A DNA stretch of 21,555 bases, taken from Candidatus Aenigmatarchaeota archaeon (GTDB lineage: Archaea; Aenigmatarchaeota; Aenigmatarchaeia; GW2011-AR5; JAGGXF01). The position numbers were made by a program. Location of the stretch: the NCBI GenBank assembly GCA_029932645.1, contig JAOZPR010000004.1:1-21555 (forward strand), written 5' to 3'. The first letter of the stretch is position 1, and the number at the start of each line of letters is the position of its first letter. Below, one piece after another: positions 15,001 through 18,000 of the stretch.

Positions 15001-18000
15001 TCGACAGCTGCAGCAATGCCAAGCTTGTCATATACGACCGCATGTTCACCAAAGAGTATGACCTTACCCGGCGCACTTGCACCAAACATCAAAACACCTG
15101 CTTCTTTTTTTATAAACACCTGTTTCTCTTTCATAGATAGTTTTTTTACAATACTTTGTTTAAAATACTTTGTTAAAAGATTTTATAGTTTAACAACAAA
15201 CAAATATATCGACATGCGCCTGTGGTCTAGTTGGTTAGATTTCGTCGCTGTTTGAAACAGCGGTGAAAAACAAAGACGTTGCCTTCACACATTATATATA
15301 ACATGGGAGAAACGGCAGAGATCGGCAGTTCAAAATCGTTGTTGCTGGCAACAGCGAGGAATATCTGCCCGGGCGCATTGTTATTTTTATCTTCTTTAGT
15401 TCTATCTTCTTTATTTTTCTAGTCACATATTTTTGTTCCGACATGCTCGCCATTGAGAATCTGAAGAATTATTTTCGGGTCGTGGCCGTTGCAAACAATC
15501 GTAGGTATTCTTGCCCTTTGTATGACTTTTATCGCTGTCGGGTCAACAACGCCATAGTTGTTTGGGCTGACCTCTACGGCAAACCTATCAAGGTCTTCAA
15601 AACTTATTTTATCCAGCTTCTTCGCGTTTTTATTCTTTTTCGGGTCCTCTTCATAGACGCCATCAACATCTGTTAATATGATGAATAAATCTGCATTAAT
15701 CATTTCTGCTGCCAATGCTGCATTTGCATCTGAACTTCGACCAGGCTCGATGCCGCCAGTTACCTGTACCTCTTCTTTTTCATCTATGTCTGATAAACTA
15801 AAAACCGGCTTGCCTTTAAGCAAAAAAGAAAGTAACCGAACATTGGCACGCATAATATCAATATACATCTCTTCTTTTTCATCGTCGGTAAGATTGAAGG
15901 GTTCAATGGCTTTTGCATATTGTCTCGTCATGCCTCCCCCGCCAATTCCAATAACGAGCTGATTGACCTGCAGCAATTGAATAACAGAAACAAGTTTCTT
16001 TATATACTGCTCTCTTGGCCCTTCTGGGCCTATGGCCAAAGACCCGCCAACCTTGATTACCAGCTTCATATGATTATAATCATCGTCTAAAGAATAAATA
16101 GTTTATTTTCAGATATACTGAAATAAAAGCAATGGAGAAAAAAAGCTGATAAAACAAAAAAATTGGGCTAGTACACCCTATCTCTTCTTTCTCTTTTTTG
16201 TTTTCTTCTTGGCTTTCTTCTTTACTTTCTTCTTTTTCTTCTTGGCTTTCTTCTTTTTCTTTGCCACAACAATCACACTCCGTTGAAAAAATTTACAATT
16301 AATTAATGTTGTTTAGTCATATAAATAAGTTTCTATTATTTTTTTTCCAAAACTTTTAGCAAATTTTTTTTAAAAAAATATAGAAATCTGAAAAAATCGA
16401 AAAAAATAAAAGAAAGAATGGGCCCGGCGAGATTTGTTCAGGCTCTTATTTTTGAAGAACCTTTTGAACACGCGACCTCCAGTTAGCCCAGATGTTCCAA
16501 GCATTTCCCATTTTGCTTGGAAGTCGTATAAGACTGGCGCTCTAATTGCCCGATTGCATCTCCAGGCTAAGCTACGGGCCCAACATCTAAAAGTTATTGG
16601 CTTAAAACACTTTAAAACCTATATTTTAAAACCTTTCTCATCTCTATATTTTTATGCTCAGAAGAAGCGATCTGGAAGATAGGGTGACAGATGTTCTAGA
16701 AAAGAGTAATTTTGATGTTCTAAGATATCATGGATGCTTTGACATAGCAGCCAAAAGAAAAAAAATATTGCTACTAAAGGTCCTCGTCAATATTGATTCA
16801 TTTCAAGAACAGCAAAGTGAAAATCTCAAGATAGTTTCGAAAAGTCTTTGCGCTTTCCCATTATTGATTGGGATTAGAACGAACAAAGAAAAATTAAAGG
16901 AAAACATTATTTACGAGAGATTTTATCTGACAACAATGAATCCAGAAACCTTAGAAAACATATTCTCCTCGTTCTCTCCAAAGATATTTAGAAAACGCGG
17001 TGGCATGTTCGTTGATATATATCCTGAAAGGCTGAGGCTCGCCAGAGAACGCCGTGGTCTGACCCAAGAGGAATTGGCAAAAAAAGTGGGGACAACGAAA
17101 AAAACGATATATGAGCATGAAAAGACTGAAAAGAAGATGTCCAAAGAATTTGCCATAAAACTGGAAAAGGTTTTAGATAAGAACATCATCAAGCCATTTG
17201 CTCTGAAAGAAACAGTGTTCGAGAATATTGAAAAAAAACCGAAAACACGGTTTGAAACCGAAGTTTTTAGGGAGTTTAGAAGAATAGGGTTTGACGCAAA
17301 TTTTGTAGAGCAGAAACCATTTAATATTATTGTAAAAAGTAAAAAAGAAAAAATGATACTGACAAAGGCTGAAACCCAAAAGAGGTGCCAAAAGATAGAT
17401 GAACTGAAAAAACTTTCTGCGTTCTTCAAGTCCCTCCCACTATTAATAACAAAAGAAAAAGGACTGGAGCTTTCTGTACCAACACTGGAAAAAACCGAAC
17501 TTAACGAGTTTAAGAGTGCAAACGAGCTAATGAAATTTTTGAAAAGTTTTTGAGCGTTTCGTTGTGTTTAAAAACTTATTCTTTGAAACTGTATAAACGT
17601 AAGGTTTAAATATACTTCCATGCACATATATTTTGATATACTTCCATGCACATAATTATGTATGGAACCGGTTAATAGTTAATATATAAAAAATATACAA
17701 AAAGAGGTGATAAGATGCTTGGACAAACTGGGGCACAGCCCATCTTTATTCTCCCGGAAGGGACGCTAAGACAGATAGGAAAAGATGCCCAAAAAGCAAA
17801 CATAACCGCAGCTACAGCAGTAGCAGACAGTGTTCGAAGCACACTCGGACCAAAAGGCATGGACAAGATGCTCGTTGACACAATAGGGGACGTGGTCATA
17901 ACCAACGACGGTGCGACAATCTTGGATGAGATGGAGATAGACCATCCTGCAGCAAAGATGATGGTTGAGGTAGCGAAGACACAGGAAGATGAAGTCGGCG

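Follow-up and report, generated by a model that had tools for sequence, protein, structure and literature searches.

A three-intron tRNA-Ile(UAU) gene and the probable replacement of tRNA-Ile2(CAU) and TiaS across Aenigmatarchaeota

The window, a 21,555-nt stretch of an Aenigmatarchaeota genome (G000, 89% complete), carries on its minus strand a tRNA-Ile gene with anticodon UAU (16419-16581), which consists of four exons and three introns and gives a spliced product of 75 nt. Comparison across the phylum indicates that tRNA-Ile3(UAU) very probably replaces tRNA-Ile2(CAU) and TiaS throughout the Aenigmatarchaeota, with the G000 gene as the AUA reader. This assessment covers the identity of the gene and the replacement and is kept separate from the U34 step; we infer EndA splicing, charging, and AUA decoding from archaeal biology. 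The exchange of Ile2 for a UAU tRNA is already published for other archaea, and G000 extends that exception, which now spans a whole phylum. The retained anticodon intron, with its conserved and partly covarying start, is the part worth following.

Gene structure and identity

The gene has the following parts:

16562-16581, minus strand: exon 1 (5' strand of the acceptor, D arm to G19), identical in G049
16546-16561, minus strand: D-loop intron (19/20), 16 nt; strict hBHBh' with central helix 4/4, h' 3 bp, and h 3 bp
16527-16545, minus strand: exon 2 (positions 20 to 37), with anticodon U34-A35-U36 at 16530-16528
16485-16526, minus strand: canonical 37/38 intron, 42 nt; strict hBHBh' with an internal hairpin
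16464-16484, minus strand: exon 3 (38 to 58) of the spliced cloverleaf
16434-16463, minus strand: T-loop intron (58/59), 30 nt; relaxed HBh' with helix 4/4, h' 4/4, and a broken outer helix
16419-16433, minus strand: exon 4, to discriminator A73; CCA is not encoded and a T-rich tract follows

The central helix of the bulge-helix-bulge (BHB) structure pairs 4/4 in all three introns, and the exact cut site of the T-loop intron is ambiguous owing to an A run at its border. When joined, the exons fold into a cloverleaf that ARAGORN assigns as Ile(tat), with an Ile-type acceptor (G1:C72, A73) and a T stem that has a single U-U mismatch. In the raw window, ARAGORN reports no tRNA gene, and Rfam no tRNA and a single chance match. 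A genome-wide ARAGORN run at a lowered threshold yielded mainly noise and was discarded.

Enumeration of BHB-like splice solutions with products of 72-80 nt returned 849 candidates, a few others of which also pass the normal ARAGORN threshold (as Ser, Leu, or Gly), so that ARAGORN alone cannot single out the Ile(UAU) solution. Its unique identity is settled by two relatives rather than by the ARAGORN score. In G049, a member of the same genus, the exons are identical and three different introns occupy the same three sites, and in G050, from the same order, the gene is intronless with an identical anticodon arm. Cloverleaf, BHB helices, and these two relatives together confirm the coordinates, the three introns, and the UAU anticodon given in the first-pass annotation. 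The genomes labeled G056 and G057 here, handles that may differ from those of that annotation, gave a chance motif match and no match, respectively.

The D-loop intron is identical to that of the tRNA-Ile(GAU) gene at C7:1312-1437, and these are its only two copies in the genome. Once spliced, the two isoacceptors agree at 63 of 75 positions. Because the 16-nt sequence is common to these two genes only and differs in the UAU gene of G049, it points to a recent exchange between the isoacceptors.

Genomic context and tRNA-processing genes

The genes that bear on the tRNA are the following:

16654-17553, plus strand: PRK04140-like HTH regulator, head-to-head with the tRNA gene (222.8 bits, under the cut-off of 263)
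17715-19361, plus strand: thermosome subunit, next after the HTH gene, in a conserved neighbourhood
1986-4979, plus strand: isoleucyl-tRNA synthetase (IleRS; TIGR00392, 835 bits against a cut-off of 621), unlinked to the tRNA gene
C27:32447-33070: EndA endonuclease, 207 aa, the only EndA found in G000

PyrH lies on the opposite side of the tRNA gene from the HTH regulator and the thermosome. Among the 131 phylum loci whose upstream sequence reaches 400 nt or more, 100 have at least one of HTH, thermosome, and PyrH in the retrieved flank (HTH alone, 55/131), and the same neighbourhood is seen in 0 of 30 Nanobdellota loci. The IleRS of the window is presumed to be the charging enzyme of tRNA-Ile(UAU). 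Three of its four closest relatives among named genomes are from Ca. Aenigmatarchaeota and the fourth is from an archaeon.

A second EndA subunit was not found in G000; alpha4 enzymes are described for DPANN archaea with disrupted tRNAs (PMC5829648). As for modification enzymes, G000 encodes an intact Elp3 (637 bits), an NcsA/TtuA-like protein that stays under both cut-offs, and TruD/Pus7, Pus10, and Cbf5. The TruA/Pus1 family (PF01416) gave no match in G000, the one genome searched, which is 89% complete. A crude scan of G000 for H/ACA guides to U34 returned candidates no more numerous than those for shuffled targets, and a comparable C/D scan for position 34, run without a shuffle control, returned none that convinces.

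AUA decoding without tRNA-Ile2(CAU) and TiaS

The TiaS_FLD domain (PF08489) has no match in G000, in the 61 genomes of its order, or in the 343 of the phylum, nor in the 98 phylum genomes with a completeness of at least 90%. TiaS_TCKD (PF22641) is likewise without a match in G000 and in the 61 genomes of the order. Four archaeal control genomes were positive each time. The reported absence of TiaS from genome and order stands and widens to the phylum, and where a single TiaS domain had been searched before, a second one now agrees for genome and order. A Nanobdellota sample gave the same result (0/111).

The two CAU tRNAs of G000 had been assigned as initiator and elongator tRNA-Met, in agreement with A1:U72 in the one at C11:18135-18270 and with an acceptor that is not of the Ile type in the one at C29:4818-4944. 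Beyond these two, no further intergenic CAU arm is found in G000. An Ile-type acceptor combined with a CAU anticodon was seen in 0 of 198 genomes with a pattern that is blind to long D-arm or stem introns, while the parallel pattern detects Ile-type UAU or GAU in at least 129 of 343. Both results uphold the claim that tRNA-Ile2(CAU) is missing. Previously noted in two relatives, the UAU tRNA is now matched by its strict 17-letter anticodon arm in 135 of the 343 phylum genomes, against one match in the reversed control. This count is a lower bound, because the motif is disrupted by introns and by variants. In the Nanobdellota, 43 of 60 motif rows (181 genomes) resemble UAU tRNAs by eye.

In the 685 script-called ORFs of G000, AUA makes up 9576 of 17221 Ile codons (56%), against 4614 internal AUG codons. 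AUA is thus a major codon here rather than a rare one, and from the two counts tRNA-Ile(UAU) is expected to be abundant. The meaning of AUA was assessed by aligning IleRS with 16 bacterial homologues. At the 28 AUA sites these homologues have I at 0.30 and M at 0.02, close to the 19 AUU/AUC sites (I 0.31, M 0.00) but not to the 24 AUG sites (M 0.25, I 0.07). Judged from this one protein and its 28 sites, AUA means Ile, and the alignment rules out a reassignment to Met.

Two alternatives to the replacement were considered. One holds that the gene is a chance splice solution or a pseudogene, or that AUA has been reassigned to Met. ARAGORN and Rfam do miss the gene in the raw window, scores are also reached by a few of the other splice solutions, and the T stem has its U-U mismatch. 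Yet the exons are identical in G049 despite differing introns, G050 has an intronless gene with a twin arm, the gene is single copy in conserved synteny, and AUA sites align with Ile in IleRS. We give this alternative next to no probability, and the comparative data refute it. The other holds that the decoding falls to a divergent TiaS together with a tRNA-Ile2(CAU) that is missing from the assembly, the UAU gene being an accessory. The incompleteness of G000, the evasion of patterns by many-intron tRNAs, and the use of two TiaS domain models leave it some room, but the TiaS searches are empty in the phylum and, with both domains, in the order while the controls respond, and the CAU pattern stays empty where its UAU/GAU counterpart succeeds. 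This alternative is very improbable and close to refuted.

Replacement by tRNA-Ile3(UAU) thus remains the preferred reading. That AUA is read by a U34 tRNA without agmatidine, as first proposed, is the best reading and applies more widely than was claimed; here we infer the decoding and the state of U34. What does not survive is the implied rarity, since the same swap is published for ARMAN-2, -4, and -5, Nanoarchaeum equitans, and Korarchaeum cryptofilum, and the generalization that nearly all archaea use agmatidine fails for the Aenigmatarchaeota and for the Nanobdellota sample. No paper was found in the literature on Aenigmatarchaeota UAU tRNAs or on the intron-start element described below, nor one that joins DPANN with TiaS, in a search that covered few subscription titles; additional cases may stand in Supplementary Table S1 of PMC3575796 and in the figures of PMC3239211.

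Retention of the anticodon intron

A U34 tRNA-Ile has to be kept from AUG, and three published cases bear on this. When an archaeal U34 tRNA-Ile was engineered, it acquired cnm5U, bound to AUG, and slowed growth, and that study leaves open how an archaeal U34 tRNA-Ile avoids AUG (PMC3895270). The tRNA-Ile(UAU) of Mycoplasma mobile is reported to have an unmodified U34 and, on the ribosome of its own species, to read AUA but not AUG (PMC3575796). In yeast, as described, Psi34 of tRNA-Ile(UAU) is made only on the intron-bearing precursor and excludes the ncm5U34 of Elongator (PMC6582322, PMC11408192). The anticodon intron was therefore scored here.

Of the 134 scorable genomes, 132 have an anticodon intron in the UAU gene. 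Of 138 UAU matches, 137 were retrieved: 133 have the intron (125 parsed by script, 8 by eye), two lack it, and two are cut by contig ends, which by genome gives 132 with it, two without (G050 and G296), and one cut by a contig end. In contrast, 69 of 123 tRNA-Ile(GAU) rows are intronless by eye (63 genomes and six rows of G252). From the other 54 rows, 40 were retrieved and 32 are real intron genes, with 14 dropped as chance matches. An anticodon intron is thus missing from about two thirds of tRNA-Ile(GAU) genes, a share somewhat raised by the last letter of the GAU pattern, which is biased toward intronless genes. Among paired genomes, 32 have the intron in UAU and not in GAU, 23 have it in both, and one in neither; the reverse case does not occur.

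In the Nanobdellota, none of 27 real loci (30 retrieved) is intronless. As related genomes are not independent, the pattern reflects long retention rather than many events. In unlabelled metagenome sequences, 90 of 120 UAU matches are intronless; most look bacterial or viral, and some look archaeal by their acceptors.

The idea that the intron is lost only along with Elp3 is not supported: G296 is intronless and Elp3 was not found there, but G050 is intronless with an intact Elp3. Conversely, G052 and G298, both incomplete, keep the intron and gave no Elp3. Over the cut-off, Elp3 was not found in three of the five UAU genomes tested, which are incomplete.

A conserved element at the intron start

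The start of the anticodon intron could pair with the preceding exon:

16522-16535, minus strand: candidate alternative hairpin, exon A29-G30-U31-C32 (16535-16532) with intron +2 to +5 (16525-16522)

In this gene the hairpin would have four Watson-Crick pairs, with U33 to A37 looped out. Across 118 distinct UAU introns, position +2 is G in 108, +3 is A or G in 112, and +4 is C in 107. This consensus complements C32, U31, and G30 and is found in 37/38 introns and in those of the shifted 38/39 type alike. A helix of at least 3 bp is possible in 114 of 133 UAU introns versus 2 of 33 GAU introns; among the Nanobdellota introns, 22 of 26 allow it. When the partner is slid along, the pairing drops from 0.86 in the true register to 0.26-0.54.

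Part of this conservation could stem from splicing, as in 92-96% of cases +2 is a paired base of the BHB inner helix. However, of 55 introns of the 37/38 type, 53 have C at +4, and inner-helix pairing of this base reaches only 27%. Because the search pattern fixed positions 30-32, which do not vary, the pairing there is mostly conservation, and covariation rests on 29/+5. This pair is Watson-Crick in 70 of the 118 introns, against 36.6 expected, and in 16 of 24 family majorities, against 7.0; G-C, A-U, U-A, and C-G all occur, and 28/+6 and 27/+7 do not covary. The fold of the isolated anticodon domain favours the splicing form in this gene (alternative pair probability 0.03), and the alternative fold wins in 27% of the 118 introns. 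In families f8 and f12 the motif is mostly absent. Other readings of the motif are that a protein recognizes it directly or that it is ancestral.

Two further observations on the intron did not hold up. The G that faces U34 in the BHB of this gene is no relic of a C34-to-U change, as across 103 resolved loci the base at this place is A 90 times, G 9 times, and U 4 times. An antisense match between the intron core and the D arm, first seen by eye, has a mean z of -0.3 versus shuffles over 82 introns.

Handling of U34

The retained anticodon intron and its start element make a yeast-like, intron-dependent modification of U34 our preferred but tentative candidate, one that we rate somewhat short of even. 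In a more specific form, which we regard as possible and hold with distinctly less than even confidence, the anticodon intron of at least two DPANN phyla would be a maturation element: N-G-R-C and a covarying fifth base would fold onto exon positions 29-32 before splicing and show U34 to a stand-alone enzyme, with TruD/Pus7, Pus10, and Cbf5 as candidates. The fold would be transient and would display U34 in a small loop, where it would be modified before splicing, most likely to pseudouridine as in yeast. Psi34 would then keep U34 from a G-reading modification of the Elp3 type. As established archaeal biology suggests, EndA would cut the three BHB motifs and the exons would be ligated; CCA would be added, IleRS would charge the tRNA, and the tRNA would read AUA, leaving AUU/AUC to tRNA-Ile(GAU) and AUG to elongator tRNA-Met. 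The D-loop and T-loop introns may be mobile passengers.

The intron step draws support from the retention of the UAU intron, its contrast with GAU, the possible helix (114/133 versus 2/33), the 29/+5 covariation, the slide control, the Nanobdellota introns, the yeast precedent, and the presence of Elp3, TruD/Pus7, Pus10, and Cbf5 in G000. It is weakened by the predicted fold of this gene, the motif loss in f8 and f12, the intronless G050 with Elp3, the intron-bearing G052 and G298 in which no Elp3 was found, the lack of a TruA/Pus1 match in G000 and of guide RNAs above shuffles, and the archaeal-looking intronless metagenome genes. Further points against it are that yeast shows no measurable AUG misreading upon intron loss, according to PMC6582322, and that Cyanidioschyzon merolae has little or no Psi34.

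Two other treatments of U34 compete with this proposal. Position 34 might stay unmodified, with the ribosome or tRNA context rejecting U:G and the intron start kept by ancestry and by the BHB inner helix. The M. mobile tRNA is a published case of this kind, +2 lies within the inner helix in nearly all introns, and two intronless genomes exist. The near-invariant +4 C without matching inner-helix pairing, the 29/+5 covariation, the retention contrast with the GAU intron, the presence of Elp3, and the in vivo modification of the engineered archaeal U34 tRNA-Ile (PMC3895270) speak against it, and we consider it slightly less likely than the intron step. Alternatively, an Elp3-derived xm5U, which the NcsA/TtuA-like protein might or might not 2-thiolate, could be added after splicing, and AUG misreading would be out-competed by tRNA-Met or tolerated. 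G000 does have an intact Elp3 and the below-cut-off NcsA/TtuA-like protein, U34 mutants of Haloarcula marismortui reportedly acquired cnm5U (PMC3895270), and G050 combines Elp3 with an intronless gene. But the cnm5U34 tRNA-Ile of that study bound AUG and slowed growth, Elp3 was not found in three of the five incomplete UAU genomes tested, and a tRNA for a codon twice as frequent as AUG should be abundant. We rate this second course like the first.

Should the proposed intron-dependent modification prove true, the intron-start hairpin would give an archaeal tRNA intron a function other than that of the known C/D guides, and archaea would have a Pus1-independent equivalent of the intron-dependent Psi34 route of eukaryotes. 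It would also explain how the commonest Ile codon can be read with U34 and AUG still be spared.

Comparison with known systems

The closest published parallel is found in ARMAN-2, -4, and -5, for which Fujishima et al. (2011, PMC3239211) report a tRNA-Ile(UAU) and the absence of tRNA-Ile(CAU) and TiaS. Like G000 they belong to the DPANN. The UAU gene of ARMAN-2 has a 37/38 intron with a strict hBHBh' motif that is cleaved in vitro (PMC3239211). However, these archaea are of another phylum, have one intron rather than three, and in its accessible text the ARMAN account has no U34 chemistry or intron-start element. In N. equitans and K. cryptofilum, tRNA-Ile3(UAU) is likewise reported to replace Ile2(CAU) (PMC6000648, 10.1101/614032). 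The Korarchaeum gene, as described there, shares with that of G000 an intron and a likeness to the GAU isoacceptor (63/75 in G000). According to the same sources, these are rare, species-specific gains, whereas the strict motif in 135 of 343 genomes describes a phylum-wide state here.

Multiple introns also have precedents. Thermoproteales are reported to have up to three BHB introns per tRNA gene, with sequences shared between genes and intron transposition (PMC4033280), although they are another lineage with, as far as that report goes, another type of endonuclease. For the tRNA-Ile(UAU) of C. merolae, introns are described in the D, anticodon, and T parts (PMC9602550); this is a eukaryote, the likeness is presumably convergent, and Psi34/36 is reported as weak or absent in vivo.

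For the proposed mechanism, the model is Saccharomyces cerevisiae, which like G000 has an intron-containing UAU tRNA. An anticodon-loop intron conserved across the clade, the yeast-type feature, is found here in 132 of 134 scorable genomes. The two differ in that yeast, as reported, needs Pus1 of the TruA family, which was not found in G000, and in that the yeast anticodon is described as paired to the intron, whereas the proposed G000 hairpin would loop U34 out.

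Genes neighboring the tRNA-Ile(UAU) gene

Besides the tRNA-Ile(UAU) gene with its three introns, the window contains the following features:

6869-8335: fibrillarin and Nop5 genes
8623-15134: gene cluster encoding mevalonate kinase, UbiD, the large and small subunits of aconitase X, an amino-acid-kinase-family protein, a UbiX-like flavoprotein and an FMN-dependent enzyme
15216-15377, plus strand: multi-intron tRNA gene, apparently Val(CAC), approximately 1 kb from tRNA-Ile(UAU)

Like tRNA-Ile(UAU), the Val(CAC) gene was missed by ARAGORN. The fibrillarin ORF may be truncated, since it ends at 157 amino acids and spans positions 5 to 165 of the 227-position profile. 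In the adjacent cluster, the amino-acid-kinase-family protein is probably isopentenyl phosphate kinase, and the FMN-dependent enzyme is likely to be IDI-2. This cluster, carried by a genome of 0.7 Mb, looks like an archaeal modified mevalonate pathway.

Isoleucine and methionine tRNAs

In roughly half of the UAU introns of the phylum, the bulge-helix-bulge (BHB) splice motif is moved by one base, to 38/39, which yields the same mature tRNA (L061-L072, L078-L086 and many later loci among those fetched with the UAU anticodon-arm motif). Metagenome contigs also yielded many UAU tRNA genes that lack introns and vary in their acceptor stems (L220-L338); these are probably bacterial or phage genes. 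Seven different tRNA-Ile(GAU) genes were found in another genome, of 1.9 Mb (G252), most likely reflecting contamination or viral contigs.

In the source genome, tRNA-Ile(GAU) (C7:1312-1437) and elongator tRNA-Met (C29:4818-4944) have an anticodon stem sequence in common. The initiator tRNA-Met carries C33 in place of U33 (C11:18188-18203), as it does in all five genomes of the order that were checked. Initiator tRNAs of animals and plants typically have C33.

Splicing endonuclease and shared introns

Most tRNA candidates of the source genome contain non-canonical introns, and a single 207-amino-acid subunit of the tRNA splicing endonuclease EndA was found (C27:32447-33070). This combination is consistent with a putative loop-bearing alpha4 enzyme like those described from DPANN.

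The 16-nucleotide D-loop intron of tRNA-Ile(UAU) (window 16546-16561) is identical in tRNA-Ile(GAU) (C7:1312-1437). Near-identical introns are also shared among unrelated tRNA genes of the source genome (C26:528-684, C37:32424-32669 and C42:1866-2029; C20:3778-3920 and C28:1880-1990). This sharing suggests that introns have transposed between tRNA genes, as has been described in Thermoproteales.
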